Below are positions 23,035 to 33,993 of a stretch of DNA of 44,947 bases, in pieces. Source of the DNA: an uncultured Methanosarcinales archaeon (lineage in GTDB: Archaea; Nanobdellota; Nanobdellia; Woesearchaeales; CAZYIM01); assembly GCA_964647565.1 (NCBI GenBank), contig CAZYIM010000021.1:1-44947 (forward strand). Reading direction: 5' to 3'. Every line of letters starts with the position of its first letter. Position 1 is the first letter of the stretch. The translations under genes were made by a program, and so were the position numbers. Under the pieces are notes generated by a model that ran no database searches, was not told the DNA's origin, and saw nothing but the letters and a program-made list of their open reading frames with translations.

Positions 23035-26000
23035 GTGACCATGACCGAAGAAAATAAAACATCACAGATGTGCAATTCCAAGACAATTGGTCTGGCTAAT
23101 AAGAAGTATTTTAACAAGCCAGGAGTCATGCACATCCTTATTCTTTTCCTGATATTTCTTTCATTGATAAATGTGGTGAGTGCACTGGACCCATGGGAGC
23201 TAAAAAAGGCGCATATCGGCGTCATAATTGATCCTGGGCACGGCATGGATTCTGCCTCGGATCCAAACAGCAGTAATAAAACAACTAAAACTAGATATAA
23301 TGTTGGAGGTGCAGTTGGTAGAAGGAATATCCAAGAATGTGATTTTAATACGAACGGCCTTTGGTCAAGACCAGACGGCGGAAAACACTGGTTTAAGAAT
23401 CATACTAACGGCTACATGCGCAGGAATGAAACAGATATTGATTTTGTAGAGCCTGAAGCAAACACATTCTATTCGTTGGCCTTTAAATTGTTACTGGTGG
23501 ACGCCGGAATATTTACAGACTATACCCGTGACTTGGATATAACTTTCAATGAGCTGCGAAACAGCCCATCGCTTGGCATTGGCATGAATAATACAGAGGT
23601 TGATTGGAGGCATGAAGCTCCCAGATATTTTCGCACTAGAAACGATTCAGAACCCTTTAATTTATCACAATCATGGTTTGGTTCTGTTGTAGACAGCCGT
23701 AGAGAATTAGCTAATTGGTATCAAAAGGATAGTCAATACAATATCTCGAAAGATTTTATTTTGATAAGCGTTCACACAGATGCTGACGCTCCTGCAGCTA
23801 CAGGAACCACTGCAATGATTTCAAAGAGGACCAGGGTATGGGGCAACAATGGGGTACCTCCTATAGGAGTTGCCTTAATGCACAACAAGCGGGCTTTGGG
23901 TGAGTATTTGCATAATAGCACTATTGGTGCGATAAGGAGAAGCAATATTGAACCCAACTGGGTCAGTAGACATCCTCTTGCAAATATCAACACTGTTTAT
24001 GAAGGTGAGGGTGGTTATGGCGGGGTGGGGTTGCTGCGCTCACCTATTGTCCCTTCTGCGCTTGTTGAGGTTGGTTTTGCAACAAATTGTGCAAGGGACC
24101 GTCGCACAATATTGAATCTATCAAGACAAGATTCCATTGATACAGTTGGACAAGGTATTTTTGATAGTGTAAAAAGATATTTTAATGCGTCTGTGAACAG
24201 TGTGAACTTATCTGGAAACGGAAGCGATTACTTTCCACTTGGACAGAGATTCTTATATGTTAGAGGAACAGGCTATCCCAGGCCCATACCTTTTAATACA
24301 AATCGAATCGTGAAAATCCATGTCACCAAACATCTAGACTATAATCAAAGCGACAGTGATGTTCCTAATTGGACCAGACTAGTGAAATTCAAAGATGTTG
24401 ATTTTTTTAACATTTCTGCTAAAGTCAATAGGAGCGGGCATTTAATTAACAATACAGGCAATAATGTTGGGATCGTGTCTGTGTTTAAACCTCCCTTTCC
24501 AGGCAAGTTTGACGTTGTTGTTTCTCTTTATAATCATACTCATTTCCATTATGTGGATGCACTAGACAACATGTCTCTAGATGATGAAGTGAAGAGTGTA
24601 CCAGGCTTTGTTGTTCCAGGAGTCTTCCCTGTAAATTCGTCAGAGAACATAACAAAAACCTTCTTTGGCTGGAATAAAGTTAGTTCTGATCTTTATTTCA
24701 AAGCCATGCATCTGCCAAAGGAAACCAATGTTACTGTTTATGTTGTTAAATATGATCCGACCAGAAACTGGAGAGGAAATCCAATCAATCTTGATCAGAT
24801 TAAGATAGTCAATATAACAATTACGACTGATGAAAATGGATCTATAAATACAACTTTGATCTGGAACATTTCCAACTCCAGTGACATGAATGTCTTTAAC
24901 AATAGCGGAAGATTCAATATTGTAGTAGATATAGACAAAGACAAACATTACAACAAATCCCGGGATGTTCTGGATGTTAATGAGATCGGTGTCCTAAAAA
25001 CTGCTAACGGCTTGACACAATTAAATTATAACACTGCTAATGGAAGGCATGCAACTCTGGAATTAAAGGCATTTCTTCATGAGTGGGTGAATTCCAGCCT
25101 TGAAATCAATACAACTTTTGATGCTCTTACAGGCGTAATGCTAAGAAAATATTGGAATTTGAGGAAAATACCTCCTGCAGCCACTAACACATTCGGACCA
25201 AAAACAAATTCCAGAGTGCAATACGATGCAAATATCAGCTTCTTTATTGCTGTTGCAGCAACAGTGAATAAGACCAACAATGTAACCAGATATTTTCCCT
25301 ATACTCGCCAGATTAATGCGACTGCCATGGGCCTTCCGCCGTCTATTGCCGGAGCAAATTCCTTTAATGTCAATGTGACTGCTTATGTTGTGCCCTACAA
25401 CGTCTCTGATGACTGGTCAAAGAATAAAAACTTAGATGATATAAATGTTGCAGTAAAAGAGAAGATTATACTTGACAAAGATGGCGGTTTTACGCAAAAA
25501 CTGATCTGGGAGCCAAAGAATGATGTACAGAAGATCCTGGACAGTAACGGAACCTTTAACCTTGTTGTGGATGTTGACCTGGATAAGCATTATAATGTCA
25601 GCAGGGATATTGTTGACATTGTCGCTTCTGACAATAAATATGGATTCAGGGTCGGTTTTGCAAACACATCTGACGAAAACGGCGTCTTTGATGGTACGCT
25701 TCCGTATGACAGCCCTGTTTATGTAAAAGGAGTCGGCTTTCCAAAAAGAAATGTACACTTATTTGTTGTCAGTAAAGGCGAATGGGCTGAGAATGAGGAT
25801 ATAACAGATCCTATCAATAAGGTTGAGAATGTAGAAATCAAGGCTGATGGCAGGCTGGATAATACCAAGATATGGAATACGCCTGTTAAAGATAATTGTA
25901 ACATAAAATATTATATCATTGTTGATGTGAACCAGGACAATAAATTCAACAAAGAATGGGATGTAATTAGCAGTTTTAACATAATACCGAAGGGTCCGGA

Positions 26001-26586
26001 TGAGGTGTGTGCTGTGGCTAATGCGGCAGATTATGGGGTCCCTCAGAAAAGGAAACGTATTTTTATTATAGGTTCAAAAAAAGGATTTAAAACAAATGAA
26101 CCCAAAAAAACACATTGTCACCCTGATAAATGTGATATTACTGGCCTTCAACCCTATGTTGGTGTTGGTAAAGTAATATCTAAATTTGATAAACCTGAAT
26201 TTTTTGAAAAAGAAGAAATTACTAAAAAAGGAACATATGGACCAGACCTAAAAGAAGTTCCACCTGGAAAAAATTATATTGCTTTAACTGCAAGAAATAA
26301 TTATCCAAATCCTAAATTCGTTGCTGGAAAAAGGTTTTGGAGTTTTTTGCTTAAACTACATCCAGAATTACCTTCTTGGACAATAGCTGCACAACCCGGC
26401 CCGTGGGTAGGACCATTTCATTGGACTTCACGAAGACTAAGAGTGCCTGAGATTGCAGCAATACAAACTTTTCCAGAAAAGTATATCTTTGTTGGTAGCA
26501 GAAGATCTATCCAAAAGCAGATTGGCAACGCAGTCCCACCATTATTAGCACAAAGAATGATTGAATTTTTAAAGGATAACCTATGA
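23035..26586 (+). CDS. Secreted N-acetylmuramoyl-L-alanine amidase (Amidase_3) with beta-rich repeats and PG-binding-like insert, fused in frame to the C-terminal half of a C5 DNA methyltransferase
   Basis: Signal/TM; IIDPGHG, E, ISVHTDA, PSALVEVGF. About four repeats ending FN(I/L)VVD.D.D..(Y/F)N...D. From about 26014: NAADYGVPQKRKR, RRLRVPE, QTFP, KQIGNAVPP. Confidence 0.8.
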   Translation: MTMTEENKTSQMCNSKTIGLANKKYFNKPGVMHILILFLIFLSLINVVSALDPWELKKAHIGVIIDPGHGMDSASDPNSSNKTTKTRYNVGGAVGRRNIQECDFNTNGLWSRPDGGKHWFKNHTNGYMRRNETDIDFVEPEANTFYSLAFKLLLVDAGIFTDYTRDLDITFNELRNSPSLGIGMNNTEVDWRHEAPRYFRTRNDSEPFNLSQSWFGSVVDSRRELANWYQKDSQYNISKDFILISVHTDADAPAATGTTAMISKRTRVWGNNGVPPIGVALMHNKRALGEYLHNSTIGAIRRSNIEPNWVSRHPLANINTVYEGEGGYGGVGLLRSPIVPSALVEVGFATNCARDRRTILNLSRQDSIDTVGQGIFDSVKRYFNASVNSVNLSGNGSDYFPLGQRFLYVRGTGYPRPIPFNTNRIVKIHVTKHLDYNQSDSDVPNWTRLVKFKDVDFFNISAKVNRSGHLINNTGNNVGIVSVFKPPFPGKFDVVVSLYNHTHFHYVDALDNMSLDDEVKSVPGFVVPGVFPVNSSENITKTFFGWNKVSSDLYFKAMHLPKETNVTVYVVKYDPTRNWRGNPINLDQIKIVNITITTDENGSINTTLIWNISNSSDMNVFNNSGRFNIVVDIDKDKHYNKSRDVLDVNEIGVLKTANGLTQLNYNTANGRHATLELKAFLHEWVNSSLEINTTFDALTGVMLRKYWNLRKIPPAATNTFGPKTNSRVQYDANISFFIAVAATVNKTNNVTRYFPYTRQINATAMGLPPSIAGANSFNVNVTAYVVPYNVSDDWSKNKNLDDINVAVKEKIILDKDGGFTQKLIWEPKNDVQKILDSNGTFNLVVDVDLDKHYNVSRDIVDIVASDNKYGFRVGFANTSDENGVFDGTLPYDSPVYVKGVGFPKRNVHLFVVSKGEWAENEDITDPINKVENVEIKADGRLDNTKIWNTPVKDNCNIKYYIIVDVNQDNKFNKEWDVISSFNIIPKGPDEVCAVANAADYGVPQKRKRIFIIGSKKGFKTNEPKKTHCHPDKCDITGLQPYVGVGKVISKFDKPEFFEKEEITKKGTYGPDLKEVPPGKNYIALTARNNYPNPKFVAGKRFWSFLLKLHPELPSWTIAAQPGPWVGPFHWTSRRLRVPEIAAIQTFPEKYIFVGSRRSIQKQIGNAVPPLLAQRMIEFLKDNL

Positions 26587-27647
26587 CAAAAAGAAAACCA
26601 ACTGTAATAAGTATATTCTCAGGTGCGGGTGGTATTGATATCGGCTTTGAGAAAGCAGGATTTAGAATTATTTATTCTACTGATTATTGGGAACCTGCAT
26701 GTAATAGTATGAAAAAGAACAAGATTAGTAATCTTGTTGAATGTAAAGATATTAGAGATGTTGATTTTAAAGCTATTTTGAAAAAAAACAAGCTTAATGA
26801 AATAGATTGCGTAATTGGTGGACCCCCCTGCCCAGCATATTCTAAATCCAGGTTTTATCTTACTCAGAAAAAGAGAGCCTTAGATGATGAAAATGCGTTT
26901 ACACTTTTTGAATACTTTCGAGCCATAAAAGAATTAAAACCTAAAGTCTTTTTTTTTGAGAATGTTCACGGATTTGTTTTTAAACCTCATCTAGCAGCAT
27001 TTAATTTCTTAATGGAAGAATCTGAAAAACTAGGATATGAAATAACGTACAAGGTAGTAAACGCTGCTAACTATGGAGTTCCACAAATCAGAGAGCGATT
27101 CATATGCGTCGGCGTAAAAAAAGGTCAAAGAAAATTTAATTTCCCAGATGAGACTCATTTTAACCCTGATAAAAAAGGAACATTGAACACATTCACAGGT
27201 AAAAAATCTTGGGTGACCTGTAAGGACGTCATTGGAGACTTGGATGTTATTTTACCTGAAGACAAGAATATGCAAGCAGGATCAAAACACAAAAATCTGC
27301 TCAAACAAATTCCTCCCGGACAAAACTATCTATTTTTCACAAAAGAAAGAGGTCATCCTAATCCAAAATTTAAATGGCGTTCTCGATATTGGTCGTTTTT
27401 ATTAAAGCTTTCTCCCGAAAAACCATCTTGGACTATACAAGCAAGTCATTCAAATAATATGGGTCCGTTTCATTGGAAAAACAGATTCTTAAGAATTGCT
27501 GAAATAAAGAGACTACAAACATTTCCTGATGATTATCAGTTTGTAGGAGATTATAGAACACAATGGAGACAAATTGGCAATGCGGTGCCACCATTATTAG
27601 TCCAAAAAATTTCAGAAGCAATAAAAGTCCAATTATTCAGTAATTAA
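26583..27647 (+). CDS. dcm: DNA (cytosine-5)-methyltransferase
   Basis: FSGAGG (motif I), GGPPC (IV), FFFENV (VI), YGVPQ.RER (VIII), RQIGNAVPP (X). Confidence 0.96.
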   Translation: MTKRKPTVISIFSGAGGIDIGFEKAGFRIIYSTDYWEPACNSMKKNKISNLVECKDIRDVDFKAILKKNKLNEIDCVIGGPPCPAYSKSRFYLTQKKRALDDENAFTLFEYFRAIKELKPKVFFFENVHGFVFKPHLAAFNFLMEESEKLGYEITYKVVNAANYGVPQIRERFICVGVKKGQRKFNFPDETHFNPDKKGTLNTFTGKKSWVTCKDVIGDLDVILPEDKNMQAGSKHKNLLKQIPPGQNYLFFTKERGHPNPKFKWRSRYWSFLLKLSPEKPSWTIQASHSNNMGPFHWKNRFLRIAEIKRLQTFPDDYQFVGDYRTQWRQIGNAVPPLLVQKISEAIKVQLFSN

Positions 27648-27834
27648 CTGAACAGTAACATTTATTTTTTAACACATCTCCGATTTTAAATCGCTTATAC
27701 GTATTGCTATGTCTTCTAGACTGGGACAACAATCTCCGTTCGTGATATTATATCAATATAATCGACTTTGTTATAACTCTGCATTAAGAAAGTAGAATAT
27801 AAACTTTTTCCATGTTTTTCCGGAGGTTTTCCGT

Positions 27835-28092
27835 CTAATCAAATAAACCCCTGCTATCAAATCCATGCTCTTTGATCCTTTTATTGATGGCCTGTGTTAT
27901 TTTAACTTTCATATTCTCAGAAAGTTGCCTTTGATTTTTAATAGCTCTGTTTATCACAGATCTATCACAGCCAGCAGCATTTGCAAGCTCATACTGACCT
28001 ATACTAAGCATTTCTAGGATTAGTTCAAGCTTTTTATTATCTGACATTTTAAGAGCCTTATAGAGTTGTTTAGCGTTGACTGGCAAAGTCAT
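27835..28092 (-). CDS. XRE/Cro-like helix-turn-helix protein
   Basis: IGQYELANAAGCDRSVINRAIKNQR. Confidence 0.75.
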   Translation of the reverse strand: MTLPVNAKQLYKALKMSDNKKLELILEMLSIGQYELANAAGCDRSVINRAIKNQRQLSENMKVKITQAINKRIKEHGFDSRGLFD

Positions 28093-28469: not shown

Positions 28470-28484
28470 ATGCCCCGAGCGGGA
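28470..28484 (-). repeat. att-like copy of tRNA-Glu 3' end (copy 3)
   Basis: ATGCCCCGAGCGGGA, identical to 33855-33869. Confidence 0.85.
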
Positions 28485-28518
28485 TGGGAAAAAAGTTTAT
28501 AATCTGAAGCATAACTGA

Positions 28519-28932
28519 TTATGAGAAATAAGCATCTTTTATTTCCTTGATAAAGTCCTTAATCTCGGCTAAGACAGCTTCAGCTTCCTTAGCAGATATA
28601 TCTTTACCATAATAATTAATTGCGTTCCTAAGTTTTCTAAAGTTGTCAAAGTTTGATCCGAGCTTTGATGCGTTAAGAATCTCTTTAAGGAAAGCACAAT
28701 AGCACTCATGATTGTAGACCTTAAAGCCTTTTCGTATGGCTAATGCTTCTAAAAGTTCCCTTAATGCATCATAGGACAGGCTTATTTTCGAGGCAGCTGT
28801 TGTATCATCAAGTGGTAGTCTTTCTTGAGTCTTAAACTTGTTTTCAGAGGATTTAAGCAATGCAGATATCAGGTTTTTATCAGTCTTTGCCTGCTTGACA
28901 AGTTTTTTTCGTTTGCATGTTGTCCAATCCAT
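28519..28932 (-). CDS. HEPN-domain protein (toxin of MNT-HEPN pair)
   Basis: Y...RE..EAL...G.K..NHEC; R.LRN.I.YYG (Rx4-6 motif with H replaced by Y); directly downstream of MNT. Confidence 0.8.
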   Translation of the reverse strand: MDWTTCKRKKLVKQAKTDKNLISALLKSSENKFKTQERLPLDDTTAASKISLSYDALRELLEALAIRKGFKVYNHECYCAFLKEILNASKLGSNFDNFRKLRNAINYYGKDISAKEAEAVLAEIKDFIKEIKDAYFS

Positions 28933-28934
28933 GC

Positions 28935-29444
28935 TTACCAACCCCCTACCAGTATCAACCCATCCATGATATTCCTTATGAGCTCTTTGGGAACATCTTC
29001 TTTCTTTGTGAAAACAAATTGCTGGATGGTGCGTCCAAGCTTTTTCTCAAATTTTTCTAGATTAATCTTCTTTTCTGAAGCAGAGAAAATGGCCAGGTCA
29101 ATATCGGAATTCTCGTTTATCTCGGCCTTTGAGAATGAGCCGAAAAGGATTACTAGTGGCTTAACCAACTCTTCTCCAAAGAAATCCGTTAGGCCTGCCT
29201 TTTCAAATATGTAAAGCCAGTATGCTCTCGAGAGGCTGATGAAGAGCTTGTCGTCCTTGTTGGCTGAAAAGTATAGATAGTTCTTTTCAATTTCTCTGAC
29301 CAGTAATCCTTCTTTGTGCAATCTCGAGAGAAATTTAGATGCTGAAGGAGGACTTATCTTGGACAGTCTTGCATATTCTCTAACATTATACCTTTTATAA
29401 TTATCCTCAAAAAAAGGTTTTAAAGTGTTAAATATTTTTAACAT
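28935..29444 (-). CDS. wHTH + minimal nucleotidyltransferase (MNT antitoxin)
   Basis: VREYAR...SPPSASK.L HTH; ILFGSFSK.E...SDIDLAI. Confidence 0.9.
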   Translation of the reverse strand: MLKIFNTLKPFFEDNYKRYNVREYARLSKISPPSASKFLSRLHKEGLLVREIEKNYLYFSANKDDKLFISLSRAYWLYIFEKAGLTDFFGEELVKPLVILFGSFSKAEINENSDIDLAIFSASEKKINLEKFEKKLGRTIQQFVFTKKEDVPKELIRNIMDGLILVGGW

Positions 29445-29471
29445 GTGTTAATATAAATTAACATCTGTTTA
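29438..29471. promoter_or_regulatory. Tandem palindromic operators over MNT start
   Basis: TTAACATGTGTTAA and TTAACATCTGTTTA, 20 bp apart. Confidence 0.6.
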
Positions 29472-29494
29472 AATATTTTTCTGTTTTAGAAAAG

Positions 29495-29539
29495 ATGCCC
29501 TGAGCGGGGCGTGGACTAAAAATTGATAAAACAGGGCAT
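29495..29539 (-). repeat. att-like copy of tRNA-Glu 3' end with inverted end (copy 2)
   Basis: ATGCCCTGAGCGGG (one mismatch to the tRNA) ... CAGGGCAT; 8-bp inverted repeat. Confidence 0.75.
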
Positions 29540-29614
29540 AAAATCCAAGTTTAGTTAATTTATAAAGCCTTTCAGTCAGTTTAAACTAACAGTACAATCT
29601 GAATATTTGTTTAT

Positions 29615-29640
29615 GTTTCCATGTTGAGCAACATAGAAAC
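29615..29640. promoter_or_regulatory. ArsR operator candidate
   Basis: GTTTCcATGTTG-AG-CAACATaGAAAC immediately before a TTTATATA box. Confidence 0.65.
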
Positions 29641-29671
29641 CTTTATATATTTGATATTTTAAGAAACAATC

Positions 29672-29941
29672 ATGCCTGATGAAAAACTAGCAAGAGCGAT
29701 CCGATCAAGAGTCAGAAGGGATATCCTTCATATTCTTGCCAAGAAACCAAAACAACCGGTCCATCTGATAGCTGATGAGCTTGACATAACAGAATCTTCT
29801 GCGTCAAAACACCTGAAATTATTGCATGACCTGGGAATACTGGTATTTAATGACGAGGGGAAGGAAAGATTCTATTCATTAAAGATCGATGAGATAAAAG
29901 ATTTGCTTACAGCCTATGACTTAGTCATAAAAAAACTTTAA
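29672..29941 (+). CDS. ArsR/SmtB-family regulator
   Basis: R..IL..L...V..IA..L....S..S.HL..L...G wHTH. Confidence 0.9.
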   Translation: MPDEKLARAIRSRVRRDILHILAKKPKQPVHLIADELDITESSASKHLKLLHDLGILVFNDEGKERFYSLKIDEIKDLLTAYDLVIKKL

Positions 29942-29958
29942 GTAGATTTATCAAGAAA

Positions 29959-32685
29959 ATGGTTGATTCGGAAATCAATTGGTATTCAAAGACAGTCAGC
30001 GAGACCTTGCTAGAATTAGATACATCTTCAGAAGGTTTGAGTTCTCAAGAGGCTGAAGCAAGATTGAGATTAAACGGGCCGAACTCCCTTGCACATGATG
30101 AAAAAAACAAGACCCTGAAGCTGTTATTCAGAAATTTCAATTCCATACTTATATACATTCTTTTAGTAAGTGCGATCATATCCCTTCTTTCCAGTCATAT
30201 GATTGAGTTAATTGTGATATTGATAATCATATTCTTTACAGGCATTTTTGGATTTATCCAAGAGTATCATGCCGGAAAAGCACTAAATGCACTATCAAAA
30301 ATCGCAGTCAAGAATGTTGAAATAATGCGTGACGGAAAGAAAGTCGAGATTGACAAAGAAGAAATTGTTATCGGAGATATCGTGCTTCTGAAAAGAGGCA
30401 TGATCGTACCAGCAGATATTCGAATAATGGAGTCCAAAGGTTTGTCTGCTGATGAATCAATACTAACAGGAGAGTCAGTCCAGAAATACAAGCGTTCTGA
30501 AGAGATAAACCAAGAAGATATTCTGATAAGTGATCAGGAAGACATACTCTTTGCAGGGACAAGCATCACAAACGGAACTGGGCTTGGAGTGGTTGTTGCA
30601 ACAGGCCTGGAATCAGAGATAGGAAAAATCTCTTTAAGACTTAAAAAGATAGGATTCCAGAAAAGCCCAATTCAAAATCAGATTGATGGTATGAGCAAAA
30701 GGATAGGTATTTTTGTGTTCTTTGCTTGCACTCTATTATTTCTTATATTAATTGGGAAGGATTTCGGACTTTTTCAGTCTCTAATGCTTGTTAGTGCTAT
30801 GGCTGTTTCAGGGATTCCTGAAAGCTTCCCATTGGCTCTGACCATGAGCCTTTCTAATGGCGTAAAAAGAATGGCGCGGACCAATGCTATCGTAAAGGAC
30901 TTGAGCTCGGTTGAGACCCTGGGAACAACAACTGTAATCTGTACAGACAAGACAGGCACCTTGACTGAGAACAAGATGCGTGTTGAACGTATTTTCTTTT
31001 CAGATGGCAAGGAAGTCCAGGTAAAAGGGCATGATTACAATCCAGAGAATGAATTTATTGTCAATGGGAGCGAAACAGACGCAAGATTCTTTGAGAAATA
31101 CCCGGAATTCTTCAATACATGTGTATTGTGCAATAACGCAAATCTTGCCCTTGAAGGGAATGAATGGAAGCTTTCAGGAGAACCTACTGAAGGCTCAATA
31201 CTGTCCTTGGCAAAAAGCACCAACTATAATGATCATCAGTTAAGGAAGGATAATAAACAGATCAAGGAGGTGGCATTTGATCCATTTGAAAAATTCATGA
31301 TAAGTGTCAATGAACATGAAAACGAGAAAACTGCATATCTAAAAGGGGCTTATGAGCAAGTAATAAGAAAATGCAAGTACATTAGGACTTCAAAAGGAAT
31401 AAAAAAACTGACCGCATCCCATATCAAAACTATTGAAAACCAAGCGCACAAATACAGCGATCTGACTTTAAGGATGCTGGCTCTTGCAACAAAGAGCATC
31501 AGGAAAATTGATGAAAGCCTTGAAACAGGGTTTATATTTGAAGGGATGGTAGGAATCGACGATCCTATTCGTAAAGAGGCTTTCAAGGCAATTGAGGAGT
31601 GTCAGAGTGCGAATGTAAAAGTCATAATGATTACAGGCGATCATAAGAAAACTGCCGAGAGCGTCGGAAGAAAGCTAGGGATTGTTACATCTGAAAAAGA
31701 TATGATCCTTGAGGGCCATGAGCTTGACAAGATGACGGATGAAGACCTGGATAAAGTTATACACCAAGTCGCTATATTCTCAAGAACAACACCAGACCAC
31801 AAGTTCAGAATAGTAAACTCACTCCAAAGAAAAGGAGAGATAGTTGCTATGACAGGCGATGGTGTGAATGATGCCCCTTCTTTGAAAAAAGCAGATATTG
31901 GCGTCAGCATGGGCAAGTCAGGTACAGATGTAGCAAGAGAAGCCTCAAACATGATACTAACAGATGACCATTTCTCAACCATAGTCAATGCTATCAGGGA
32001 AGGGAGAACCATCTACAGCAATATCAGGCGTTTCATATACTATCTGCTCACAGGTAACGCAACAGAGGTTCTGCTTATATTCTTAGCTGTCCTGATAGGG
32101 ATAATCACTCCATTGACCGCTTTAATGATCCTATTCATTAACCTTATAACCAGCACATTTCCCGCACTTGCGTTAAGCATAGAGAAGACCCATCTGAAAG
32201 TCATGAAGCAGAAACCCCGTAATCCTGATGAAAAACTATTATCTAACTATATTCTTTTAAAGATATTTGTGTTGGTGCCATTGATATTATTAGGTACTTT
32301 GGCTTTATTCTTATGGGAGTTAAACATAACAGGAGGCGAAATTGAGAAGGCAAGAACCCTTGCCTTTGCAGCACTGATAATATTTGAACTTATGCATGCA
32401 TTCAATGCACGAAATCTGCATACAACAATCTTCAGCAAAGACTTCTTCTCTAACAAGTATATATTCATCGCTGTATTTATATCACTATCCCTGACAATCG
32501 TGGCAATTTATACAAACCTAGGTCAAAGCATATTCCAGACAACTGCCTTGAATCTTACAGAATGGTTGATAATTATCGGAGTCAGCAGTTTAGTCATAGT
32601 TGTTTCTGAAACAATAAAGGCATTGATCAAGAGCGAATTCAAAGAACAGAAAAGGCTTAAAGGCCTGGAAATAAGCGTTGAATAG
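29959..32685 (+). CDS. P-type II cation-transporting ATPase (Ca2+/Na+-type)
   Basis: LTGES, IPESFP, DKTGTLT, KGA, ITGD, TGDGVNDAPSLK. Confidence 0.96.
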   Translation: MVDSEINWYSKTVSETLLELDTSSEGLSSQEAEARLRLNGPNSLAHDEKNKTLKLLFRNFNSILIYILLVSAIISLLSSHMIELIVILIIIFFTGIFGFIQEYHAGKALNALSKIAVKNVEIMRDGKKVEIDKEEIVIGDIVLLKRGMIVPADIRIMESKGLSADESILTGESVQKYKRSEEINQEDILISDQEDILFAGTSITNGTGLGVVVATGLESEIGKISLRLKKIGFQKSPIQNQIDGMSKRIGIFVFFACTLLFLILIGKDFGLFQSLMLVSAMAVSGIPESFPLALTMSLSNGVKRMARTNAIVKDLSSVETLGTTTVICTDKTGTLTENKMRVERIFFSDGKEVQVKGHDYNPENEFIVNGSETDARFFEKYPEFFNTCVLCNNANLALEGNEWKLSGEPTEGSILSLAKSTNYNDHQLRKDNKQIKEVAFDPFEKFMISVNEHENEKTAYLKGAYEQVIRKCKYIRTSKGIKKLTASHIKTIENQAHKYSDLTLRMLALATKSIRKIDESLETGFIFEGMVGIDDPIRKEAFKAIEECQSANVKVIMITGDHKKTAESVGRKLGIVTSEKDMILEGHELDKMTDEDLDKVIHQVAIFSRTTPDHKFRIVNSLQRKGEIVAMTGDGVNDAPSLKKADIGVSMGKSGTDVAREASNMILTDDHFSTIVNAIREGRTIYSNIRRFIYYLLTGNATEVLLIFLAVLIGIITPLTALMILFINLITSTFPALALSIEKTHLKVMKQKPRNPDEKLLSNYILLKIFVLVPLILLGTLALFLWELNITGGEIEKARTLAFAALIIFELMHAFNARNLHTTIFSKDFFSNKYIFIAVFISLSLTIVAIYTNLGQSIFQTTALNLTEWLIIIGVSSLVIVVSETIKALIKSEFKEQKRLKGLEISVE

Positions 32686-32784
32686 CTGAATAAGATGATC
32701 AAAATGGACTGGAACAATTTCATGTAGTGATGAAGAAGATTGTAACGATAATCTGTAATATAGTTAATATACTAGAAAATAAAG

Positions 32785-32828
32785 TGCCCCGAGCGGACAT
32801 AGTACCTTTTTGTGATATTTGATGGGCA
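32785..32828 (-). repeat. att-like copy of tRNA-Glu 3' end with inverted end (copy 1)
   Basis: TGCCCCGAGCGG identical to 33856-33867; site ends in GGGCA. Confidence 0.8.
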
Positions 32829-32834
32829 AACACC

Positions 32835-33791
32835 CTATTTTTTATGTATTTCTCGGAATTTTGAAATAAATTCTTGAGGAGATTCATTATTGATGTAGAA
32901 AATGCTGCTATCTTTTTCTGCTTCATAAAGAACAAGACCATATTTTGAAGTCATCTTTCGTAGCCAATAATGGTTTATTACTGAAAATCCCTCAAAATTC
33001 AGTTCTAGCTCATCACCCACATCATCAAAATACTTATCTAACTTTGTACCTTTGAATAAAGCCATAGTAGAATCAGACAGAAATTGATAAATCTCATTTT
33101 CTAAACCCAATTGTTCAAATGTCATTTGATCTCCTATAATATCTTTTGCGAACTTTTCTCTAAGACCATATATTCCTGAATCATTTTGTTTTAATATAGT
33201 GGTTGTTTGAACTGTTGGAACAAGAAGATATGATTTTGACGGGGTGACAACAATTTCACAAGCACGATTTCCTTGGGGCCTATTCAAATAAGTGTCAAAC
33301 AAAAGGGAATAAAGATCCTTGCCCATCGCCATCGGTGACTCAGTAGGGTGTGTATGAATCCCTATGGTGGCGCGTAATTCCCCTTCATTTTCAGGATCAT
33401 CAGGAAATAAGAATGTATCGCAAGCAACCCTCACAAGATTTCCTGAGTCATCCAATTCAGGAAGTTCAGATCTTTTTATATTGCCTGCTCGCCAATCTGA
33501 CGCATGTTCAGATAAGAATAATTTCCTATAAAACTCCATAAATTTCCATCTTTGTTCTGGATCTTTTTTCAAATCATAATTCTCAAGAAATTTTAGAGAT
33601 AACCTGTCTTTTAAGGAAGGATTCCGAAGGAACCGTTCCCATCTTTTTCTCAATCCAGAAAGGGAATTCGAAATTATAGAATCCGCTAAGTTTAATTCCT
33701 TAGGTAAAGCTCCTTTTTCAGAGTATTTATGATGCTTCACAATATCTTCTATAGCTGATAAAAATTGTATTGAAGTAAAACTATTTGACAT
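32835..33791 (-). CDS. Hypothetical protein with JAB/JAMM-like HxH-x10-D motif
   Basis: IGIHTHPTESPMAMGKDL followed by EIVVTP..Y beta strands; own TTTATAAATA box. Confidence 0.55.
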   Translation of the reverse strand: MSNSFTSIQFLSAIEDIVKHHKYSEKGALPKELNLADSIISNSLSGLRKRWERFLRNPSLKDRLSLKFLENYDLKKDPEQRWKFMEFYRKLFLSEHASDWRAGNIKRSELPELDDSGNLVRVACDTFLFPDDPENEGELRATIGIHTHPTESPMAMGKDLYSLLFDTYLNRPQGNRACEIVVTPSKSYLLVPTVQTTTILKQNDSGIYGLREKFAKDIIGDQMTFEQLGLENEIYQFLSDSTMALFKGTKLDKYFDDVGDELELNFEGFSVINHYWLRKMTSKYGLVLYEAEKDSSIFYINNESPQEFISKFREIHKK

Positions 33792-33855
33792 ATTGAATTA
33801 GGGTAAAATGTATTTATAAAGTTTTCGTTTATTAACCATTTAGAAGTAACAAAAA

Positions 33856-33993
33856 TGCCCCGAGCGGGAATTTCGTCTTGAGACAAAAGCCTTGTTGACT
33901 TTCTCATCAAGTATTCGAACCCACGTCATTGCCTTTCTCTAACCTTTTGGTTGCGAGAGGGCAATATGATTGGCCGGACTACACCATCGGGGC
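33856..33993 (-). tRNA. trnE: tRNA-Glu(CTC) with two introns: 37/38 (33935-33953, 19 nt) and 59/60 (33870-33913, 44 nt)
   Basis: Exons GCCCCGATGGTGTAGTCCGGCCAATCATATTGCCCTCTCG | AGGCAATGACGTGGGTTCGAA | TCCCGCTCGGGGCA fold into a cloverleaf. BHB helices are CTCT/AGAG and TTCG/CGAA. Confidence 0.93.

Follow-up and report, generated by a model that had tools for sequence, protein, structure and literature searches.

The window, that is, the whole 44,947-nucleotide stretch of archaeal contig CAZYIM010000021.1 that was analysed, harbours a tRNA-Glu(CUC) gene with two introns and, behind it, three small gene cassettes bounded by short sites. These sites are probably attachment (att) junctions, produced when small cassettes entered the 3' end of the tRNA gene in successive site-specific insertions. 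Reading them as recombination sites is based on four unique same-strand copies of the tRNA end, the unrelated accessory cassettes between them, a joint found by comparison with a locus of another genome (L044), a parallel array in the genome G077, and the behaviour of arms and cores across hosts. The window's own genome, a 2.68 Mb assembly, is called G000; other G codes and the L codes denote comparison genomes and loci.

Core copies and sites in the window

The tRNA's own 3' end, CCGCTCGGGGCA, was found four times on the minus strand, at 33867-33856, 32796-32785, 29507-29496 (as CCGCTCAGGGCA, with one mismatch), and 28482-28471. These four same-strand core copies are contained in 5.4 kb of DNA that has the intact tRNA at one end, and they belong to the following features.

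33856..33867, minus strand, core copy 1, the 3' end of the tRNA itself, attL-like, with a T-rich flank after the core
32770..32828, minus strand, site 1 (type I), with the P arm at 32828-32797, the core at 32796-32785, and a T-rich P' arm to about 32770
29496..29538, minus strand, site 2 (orphan arm type), TGCCCTG...CCGCTCAGGGCA, with 7-bp inverted ends and a core with one mismatch
28471..28511, minus strand, site 3 (type II), the outermost core copy, with a decayed 5' end (TGCTTC)

With up to two mismatches allowed, four core matches were seen in the window versus 0.43 expected, and none of 100 shuffles reached four. The exact 12-mer occurs three times in the whole assembly, always in this array, and one mismatch adds the local copy at 29496 and two unrelated matches on other contigs. 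At three mismatches, no further core copies rose above chance (8 found versus 7.56 expected). The downstream copies match 12-14 nt of the third exon of the tRNA and nothing of the intron. The flank 3' of the core is similar in several sites (CTTTATTTTCTAG, CTTATTTTTCTCG, CTTTCTTTTCTCG), a likeness of the P' flanks that would be expected if tandem integration had produced internal junctions with the structure P(new)-core-P'(old).

Read on the minus strand, site 1 is TGCCCATCAAATATCACAAAAAGGTACTATGTCCGCTCGGGGCA (32828-32785, 44 nt) and site 2 is TGCCCTGTTTTATCAATTTTTAGTCCACGCCCCGCTCAGGGCA (29538-29496, 43 nt). In both, TATCA starts exactly 33 nt from the 3' end; TGCCC stands 44 nt from the 3' end in site 1 and TGCCCTG 43 nt from it in site 2, and site 3 has TGC only, at 41 nt. 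A preliminary description of this DNA had given the coordinates, the lengths of 43-44 nt, the TGCCC/GGGCA ends, and the placing of TATCA, all of which were re-read from the letters and agree. Its 8-bp inverted repeat at 29496 has to be shortened, as the perfect repeat within 29496-29538 comprises 7 bp (TGCCCTG/CAGGGCA) and an eighth pair needs the flanking A and T. The inverted ends of site 1 pair over 5 bp only.

The cassettes measure 1.0-3.3 kb, hold one or two genes each, and are accessory and mutually unrelated in content. A counterpart of the middle one, cassette B, was found with 75% nucleotide identity over 29612-32761 in a Nanoarchaeia metagenome-assembled genome (MAG; L044), where no sites flank it. 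In L044, the open reading frame (ORF) downstream of the ATPase gene is whole (108 aa), and in the window it is cut about 24 nt from the site 1 core. As the homology stops inside an ORF, cassette B is a fragment of a foreign chromosome that ends in a recombination joint. Among public reads, the stretch was present in 8 runs from 2 studies, and contigs of 4 runs were compared at a depth of about 3. The source sample may be among these marine runs, whose Logan contigs agree letter for letter with the window wherever they align. As the contigs extend across site 2, site 3, and the tRNA, the arrangement is not an assembly artefact.

Related sites in other genomes

The comparison set consisted of the 40 nearest genomes, all from other families of one order, and 20 tRNA loci of relatives were cut out and examined. 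In six of these 20 loci (L024, L027 and L033 with two copies each, L034, L036, and, doubtfully, L029), the gene's own 3' 12-mer recurs downstream; none of the eight downstream copies has a complementary 5' arm. At L027 (G003:C81, minus strand), the tRNA-Glu at 10-84 in minus-strand counting is directly followed by two tandem 62-nt units, each ending in a near copy of the tRNA 3' 12-mer, with no cassette.

The pattern TGCCC-N24-29-CCGNNCNGGGCA, searched in 251 genomes of the order, gave 13 matches in 11 genomes versus one for the reversed control. Two were the window sites, four were true tRNA-Glu genes, and four were new sites, two of them in G077 and one each in G023 and G100; matches in G183, G068, and G191 were left out. 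Since the pattern requires TGCCC, the G023 and G100 sites are subject to ascertainment bias.

The G077 sites read TGCCC(T/C)AA(A/T)T(C/A)TTCACAAAAAGGT(C/A)TTATGA followed by CCGAACGGGGCA, and their arm is homologous to that of site 1 by alignment (0 of 2000 shuffles). G077 belongs to a different family, and its tRNA-Glu(UUC), read as a multi-intron gene, is followed by four core copies spaced 0.5-1.8 kb apart. Its four cassettes hold a 326-aa protein of unknown kind, a nucleotidyltransferase pair, a radical-SAM gene, and a short unit. The congener G173 retained G077 cassettes 2 and 3 at 75-77% identity and has five type I sites with partly decayed cores. The arrays of both genomes, each behind its own tRNA-Glu, have the same inner block of ~20 nt as the window (TTCACAAAAAGGTat.ATGA), joined to the 3' end of the local tRNA.

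The arm of site 3 was found to be homologous to G023:C29 6087-6128, which starts with TGCCCC (0 of 2000 shuffles). This supports the earlier proposal that the copy at 28471 is an older, decayed site. For the arm of site 2, alignments with shuffles gave no significant relative. Thus the type I arm is present in G000, G077, and G173 and the type II arm in G000 and G023. Across hosts the arm is conserved, whereas the core varies with each host's own tRNA (CCGCTCGGGGCA in G000, CCGAACGGGGCA in G077). Judged from these alignments, the three sites of the window are three arm families, each joining an element-borne arm to a core of the local tRNA. This combination is what characterises att sites, and it bears out the view, already put forward in the preliminary description, that the cassette boundaries are recombination sites.

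With the core and P' arm pattern GGGCACTTNNTTTTCT, 401 genomes gave 11 matches versus 6 for the control; three were known G000 and G077 sites and the eight new ones were not site-like. A loose type I pattern (two mismatches, five genomes) additionally matched G100 C343, G100 C363, and G173 C141, which were judged not to be sites.

The formation of the array is derived here from the standard attP x attB scheme. An element-borne site, composed of a P arm, a core of 12-14 nt equal to the tRNA end, and a T-rich P' arm, would recombine with the tRNA-proximal core. Each insertion would leave the tRNA intact and move older cassettes outward, and internal junctions would consequently take the form P(new)-core-P'(old). 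The youngest cassette, holding an ORF without relatives (ORFan), would stand next to the tRNA and the oldest and most decayed site (28471) farthest from it, and the 5' TGCCC would be a part of the element-borne P arm. The ssrA islands of Dehalococcoides are reportedly an example of such tandem integration.

A tRNA-Glu(CUC) gene with two introns

33856..33993, minus strand, tRNA-Glu(CUC) gene with two introns; exons at 33993-33954, 33934-33914, and 33869-33856
33953-33935, minus strand, intron 1, 19 nt, at position 37/38, in a bulge-helix-bulge arrangement with a CUCU/AGAG helix
33913-33870, minus strand, intron 2, 44 nt, at T-loop position 59/60, with a UUCG/CGAA helix

On the raw window DNA, no tRNA was reported by ARAGORN (with or without its intron option) or by Rfam, because the gene is interrupted by two introns. 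On the sequence spliced by coordinates, with the introns taken from a parse by hand, ARAGORN reported a canonical 75-nt tRNA-Glu(ctc). The 138-nt precursor was predicted to fold into a cloverleaf with two extended arms (-54.3 kcal/mol, z -4.93), and none of 200 shuffles was as good. The third exon is TCCCGCTCGGGGCA. Read at the level of sequence, the 3' arm of the sites is a literal copy of tRNA positions 62-73, comprising T-stem and acceptor 3' strand, and its mimicry of the acceptor stem follows from this. The earlier claim that the ends of the sites mimic an acceptor stem is therefore right for the 3' arm, which is the tRNA's own 3' strand, but a folded acceptor-stem-like structure found no support. 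The copies were also considered as extra 3' exons of a split or alternatively spliced tRNA; this was rejected since the CGAA helix strand that precedes exon 3 is missing in the copies.

Introns have been proposed to shield tRNA genes from integration. Those of the window interrupt the anticodon loop and the T-loop, and the locus adds a case of tRNA introns positioned exactly at the two places where integrases usually cross over. Standard finders miss multi-intron tRNA genes, and arrays of this kind hence appear as repeats without a source. Relatives' tRNA-Glu genes also contain introns in the D-loop, anticodon loop, and T-loop. Many tRNA-Glu genes of related MAGs end up within about 1 kb of a contig end (for example, G003:C81, G021:C13, G026:C30, G034:C9, G037:C70), as variable or repeated flanks would produce.

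Two further features lie upstream of the gene.

34093-34080, minus strand, second copy of the tRNA 5' end, ATGCCCCGATGGTG, 14 nt, 98 nt upstream of the tRNA
34046-34019, minus strand, conserved hairpin GTGGGTTTCGCT...CTCAAGCCCAC, after the copy of the tRNA 5' end

The 5'-end copy may be a scar on the 5' side. The same hairpin was found upstream of tRNA-Glu after a longer tRNA-Glu 5' fragment (G024), inside the T-loop intron of a tRNA-Glu (G011), and in an intergenic region near tRNA ends (G019), and it may represent a small RNA or an intron-like module that is mobile.

Candidate recombinases and possible integron-like capture

Several observations speak against serial insertion at the tRNA gene. 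No recombinase was found among the 43 larger ORFs of the window scanned with Pfam, and no integrase was found by Pfam in the G077 array. By tblastn with four tyrosine recombinases, no remnant was detected (best E 0.069; in the window, 0.14). The Logan contigs contained no cassette-skipping joint, empty site, or circular form, although contigs alone, at a depth of about 3, carry no information on mobility. No free element with a type I site was found in viral or metagenome collections, as the type I pattern had 0 matches in viral contigs and matched four loci in metagenome contigs that were unrelated DNA (three of them GC-rich) with no tRNA-like core. Core identity to the tRNA extends over only 12-14 nt, which is at the short end of known archaeal att sites. 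Finally, TGCCC is missing from four of the eight core copies that were found without requiring it (present in 2 of 3 in G000, 2 of 4 in G077, and 0 of 1 in G173).

The recombinase is probably a tyrosine recombinase, and it would not be encoded in the array but act in trans or have been lost. Genome-wide, there are six PF00589 matches, all on other contigs. Tyrosine recombinases of about 410-430 aa are present in full length at 124969-126198 of G000 contig C2 and at 42523-43752 of contig C22, in part on C33, and once in G077 (C7), with 50-60% mutual identity; G023, G100, and G173 have only shorter recombinases. No site-like repeats were found near these larger enzymes. A link to the sites was dismissed, leaving them as candidates only. 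Among the G000 and G077 copies, only the one on C22 lies beside a tRNA. In this region (G000 C22 42253-43752; L076 12254-13753), a presumed multi-intron tRNA, recognised by reading with no program call, is followed about 90 nt on by a 409-aa tyrosine recombinase. The last 7 nt of this tRNA recur inverted (TAGCCCC) 16 nt downstream, and the locus looks like an integrated element that runs off the contig end.

The sites were also checked for the split integrase genes of SSV-type elements. In three type I sites, an ATG immediately precedes the core, which is crossed by an ORF of 12-30 codons, as would be expected at the start of a split integrase. The type I P' arms translate alike, RGT(L/Y/F)FS; a T-rich terminator explains this conservation equally well. 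Int(N)- or Int(C)-like pieces were not found by tblastn with the four recombinases.

An alternative that seems rather unlikely is an integron-like platform, on which the cassettes would never have carried an integrase. Each would have one P-core-P' site in an attC-like role and would be caught at the tRNA-Glu 3' end, in an attI-like role, by a host recombinase that binds inverted TGCCC/GGGCA about 43 bp apart. The lack of recombinase genes or remnants in all three window cassettes and all four G077 cassettes would be expected of such a platform, as would the cassette size of 0.5-3.3 kb with one or two genes, a toxin-antitoxin (TA)-like pair in both arrays, both arms being kept in internal sites, TGCCC at 42-44 nt across non-alignable arm families, and a P arm that starts 6-7 nt past the stop codon in cassettes A and C by direct reading. 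However, no recombinase is tied to the sites, gene orientation is mixed, and orthologous sites of G173 have decayed cores, as in an old and static array. In addition, the G023 and G100 sites were found by a pattern that requires TGCCC, and the decay of ordinary integrated elements gives the same architecture.

The broadest form of this idea, to which we also give little weight, is a tRNA-Glu-anchored gene-capture platform in Woesearchaeota-type DPANN archaea that would be integron-like in action but differently built. It would use integrase-free cassettes with one P-core-P' site of ~60 nt, a recombinase acting in trans, the last 12-14 nt of the tRNA, and TGCCC/GGGCA half-sites about 43 bp apart, and the two introns would now break the geometry of the target.

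The 5' TGCCC arm

To obtain a null distribution for the 5' arm, upstream 60-mers were swapped for random genomic 60-mers 200,000 times. The probability that at least two of three sites have an arm of at least 5 nt was 0.003, and it was 0.000275 when the spacing had to agree within 2 nt; any arm of at least 7 nt had a probability of 0.005. It is unlikely that the 5' arms arose by chance, even when a post-hoc choice is allowed for. Chance had been kept as an explanation in the preliminary description, as there were two sites with short arms, and the empirical null of 0.000275 makes it improbable.

Arm families that cannot otherwise be aligned, namely type I, type II (G023), and the orphan arm of 29496, share TGCCC at 42-44 nt, which speaks for a function of this motif itself. 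Most likely, the 5' TGCCC would be an inverted second copy of the recombinase half-site GGGCA. With this recurrence, the paired recombinase-binding arms that had been suggested earlier are a possible reading of the inverted ends.

There is a small probability that the 5' TGCCC arm is a coincidence or reflects mere shared descent of one arm family, in which case only the direct repeats would be meaningful. The arm is absent from the eight downstream copies at the tRNA loci of six other relatives and is missing in G077_c, G077_d, and G173_5, and arms of 5 bp are short. Yet two arms at the same spacing (0.000275) and the 7-nt arm (0.005) are rare under the null, and the type I, type II (G023), and orphan 29496 arms that share TGCCC are mutually non-alignable.

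It is similarly improbable that the sites are internally deleted tRNA-Glu copies or att sites that come from the whole tRNA gene of an earlier host, so that the 5' arm would be the 5' strand of the acceptor and its complementarity inherited, not selected. The arms do start with (A)TGCCC like the tRNA genes (tATGCCCCG in G000, aATGCCCCG in G077), a T/A variant is natural, given the G011 tRNA-Glu acceptor GCCCTGG...CCAGGGC, TAGTCCACGCC in 29496 resembles the D-loop TAGTCCGGCC by direct reading, and a tRNA 5' fragment lies upstream of the gene. However, the interiors are not tRNA-like, and what two families have conserved between them in the type I interior is a non-tRNA sequence. A 6-mer shared between a 30-nt and a 138-nt sequence is, by estimate, expected by chance, and integration at a 3' core copies no 5' end.

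A vestige of the anticodon-stem TGCCC was considered as a further source of the 5' arm. In the four true intron-free tRNA-Glu genes matched by the pattern, 45 nt separate this TGCCC from A73, a spacing similar to the 42-44 nt of the arms. However, the interiors are not tRNA-like and the tRNA-Glu of the G077 array has CCGGC in this stem, and the agreement was set aside as a probable coincidence.

Folding and covariation

In the setting of serial insertion, the sites probably act as duplex DNA and not as a folded strand. The preliminary description had considered folding of the inverted ends into an attC-like hairpin of single-stranded DNA (ssDNA) or an RNA minihelix, kept by a compensatory change. 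For seven intact sites, ssDNA folding gave -1.7 to -4.6 kcal/mol with z from -1.61 to +1.05, and RNA folding gave z from -1.97 to +1.05, with values near -2 only for 29496 and G077_a. Only 5-7 terminal pairs are predicted, the 24-27 nt between arm and core being unpaired, and by direct reading the loop that the ends close measures 29-34 nt and is mostly unpaired, both in the stem of 29496 and in the centroid folds. The T-stem strand CCCGC has no partner by direct reading, and no T-arm is possible. The 12-bp coaxial acceptor/T helix with T-loop of a tRNA-like minihelix was absent from the RNA folds, which show a terminal stem of 5-7 bp only, and no attC core motif of the GTTRRRY type was seen by direct reading. 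Neither the hairpin nor the minihelix is thus supported.

Across nine aligned type I sites, TGCCC is exact in five, GGGCA in five, and both in three. Two G173 sites kept TGCCC and lost the GGGCA end, and two sites kept GGGCA without TGCCC. As the two are rarely intact together, the ends decay independently. The best conserved block in the nine sites is TTCACAAAAAGGTAT.ATGACC, which adjoins the core. At the sixth arm position, six intact sites show two Watson-Crick pairs (T-A in 29496, C-G in G077_b), one G-U pair, and three mismatches; pairing in two of six is about the chance rate. Covariation among homologous sites, which folding would predict, was consequently not found.

The mirrored G-to-A and C-to-T change in 29496 is real, but it is a single case with no support beyond it. 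Going by the letters, it could equally be inherited from a tRNA-Glu allele with a T5-A68 pair, as in G011. Hence, despite the perfect 7-bp stem of 29496 (8 bp with flanks), its mirrored substitution, and an RNA z near -1.9 to -2.0 in two of seven sites, folding is very improbable in view of the weak DNA energies (best z -1.61), the unpaired loop with an unpartnered CCCGC, intact arms in three of nine homologous sites with two G173 sites holding TGCCC without GGGCA, pairing at the sixth position in two of six, and the lack of a GTTRRRY-type attC core.

Comparison with known systems

Partial-tRNA att sites, tandem integration, and integrase-free accretion are already known, and the array presents an unusual integrase-free form of them. 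Passages on the element PYG1, with its 44-bp repeats, describe partial tRNA copies as marks of attR sites (PMC9897764). According to a 2021 review, the att sites of archaea can be as short as 13-14 bp or exceed 100 bp, and both gene capture and integration in tandem are known (PMC8371274); the word DPANN is absent from this review of archaeal tyrosine recombinases. In the bacterial literature on integrative and conjugative or mobilizable elements (ICE/IME), elements that have decayed but retain their att sites and undergo tandem accretion are defined as cis-mobilizable elements (CIMEs; PMC5704250).

Like CIMEs, the window array has direct repeats of the 3' end of a target RNA gene, the intact gene at one end, and tandem units that keep att sites without integration genes. 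It differs in its units of 1.0-3.3 kb, its DPANN host, and its identity block of 12-14 nt, is known from sequence alone, and the seven cassettes of the two genomes contain neither an integrase nor remnants of one. Archaeal tRNA genes are targets of tyrosine integrases of the suicidal SSV type and the pNOB8 type (PMC8371274, PMC7253208). As with archaeal integrative elements at tRNA genes, the att site is the 3' part of a tRNA, integration is in tandem, and elements are trapped, whereas known att identity is usually 40-50 bp and no Int(N)/Int(C) is detectable here.

Archaeal integrons have canonical folded attC sites, and the term tRNA occurs 0 times in the paper that describes them (PMC9668308). 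Small promoter-poor cassettes without their own recombinase, sites with inverted ends, and TA-like cassettes are common to integrons and the window array. In contrast, no IntI lies beside the array (there is no recombinase in the 45-kb window), attC-like folds and motifs are missing, the array is anchored on a tRNA gene, and gene orientation is mixed.

For the tRNA-Thr of Caldiarchaeum, one study describes disruption of a tRNA gene by mobile elements (PMC3293823). There, too, a multi-intron tRNA has its own 5' fragment upstream and mobile DNA beside it. The window locus differs, as its repeats match exon 3 only, the fragment is 98 nt and not 1.8 kb away, and no recombinase-bearing insertion sequence was seen.

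Unusual features are the cassettes, which are very small and without exception free of integrases in two unrelated arrays, a short core, the sharing of arm families between different families of a DPANN order, and the target, a two-intron tRNA gene that standard finders miss. Little has been described of gene flow and mobile elements in DPANN archaea. Here, a cation pump, a toxin-antitoxin-like pair, and an orphan gene enter such a genome at a tRNA end as tiny integrase-free units, with site families common to different families of the order. The core of 12-14 nt and the two arm families provide defined substrates for finding the recombinase.

Cassettes and surroundings

32829..33855, minus strand, cassette A, with a single 318-aa ORF at 32835-33791
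29539..32784, plus strand, cassette B, with an ArsR-type regulator at 29672-29941 and a P-type (Ca-type) ATPase of 908 aa at 29959-32685 (Pfam, NCBIfam)
32689-32784, plus strand, tail of cassette B, with the cut-off start of a small membrane ORF to about 32761, the frame of which now ends inside site 1
28512..29495, minus strand, cassette C, with a helix-turn-helix (HTH) nucleotidyltransferase (MntA-like) at 28935-29444 and a 140-aa partner at 28519-28941

The 318-aa ORF of cassette A matched no Pfam, NCBIfam, or PHROG family and had only itself as a relative among 5.8 billion clusters, with none viral; a protein atlas gave no named kin and a weak JAB-like lead (score 0.80). This ORFan lies directly behind the tRNA, where an integrase is expected, and contains an HTHP...S..D-like stretch. 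It was considered as a hidden recombinase and rejected, given the lack of a family and relatives and the weak JAB-like lead alone. It shows no similarity to the 326-aa ORF at the same position in G077. In cassette C, the nucleotidyltransferase was assigned by Pfam (PF18765 and PF01909) and NCBIfam (MntA-like), and its partner has a weak match to DUF2096_N (E 0.005). The pair, described as nucleotidyltransferase/HEPN-like, is likely a toxin-antitoxin system. By GC content, the cassettes were not distinguishable.

Elsewhere in G000, a 14-nt word has about 38 matches on contig C14 (59.6 kb) and also occurs on C68 and C69. These repeats were rejected as recombination sites, as the word is the coding N-terminus (M..LI.AGSGKKKK) of a tandem family on C14, with paralogs of roughly 250 aa spaced about 0.7-0.8 kb apart. 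Just outside the array, at 23035-28092 of the window, there are three proteins, one of 1183 aa that combines amidase-like and C5-methylase parts, a C5 cytosine methylase of 354 aa, and a HigA/Cro-like HTH protein of 85 aa, and this region is possibly another accessory block.

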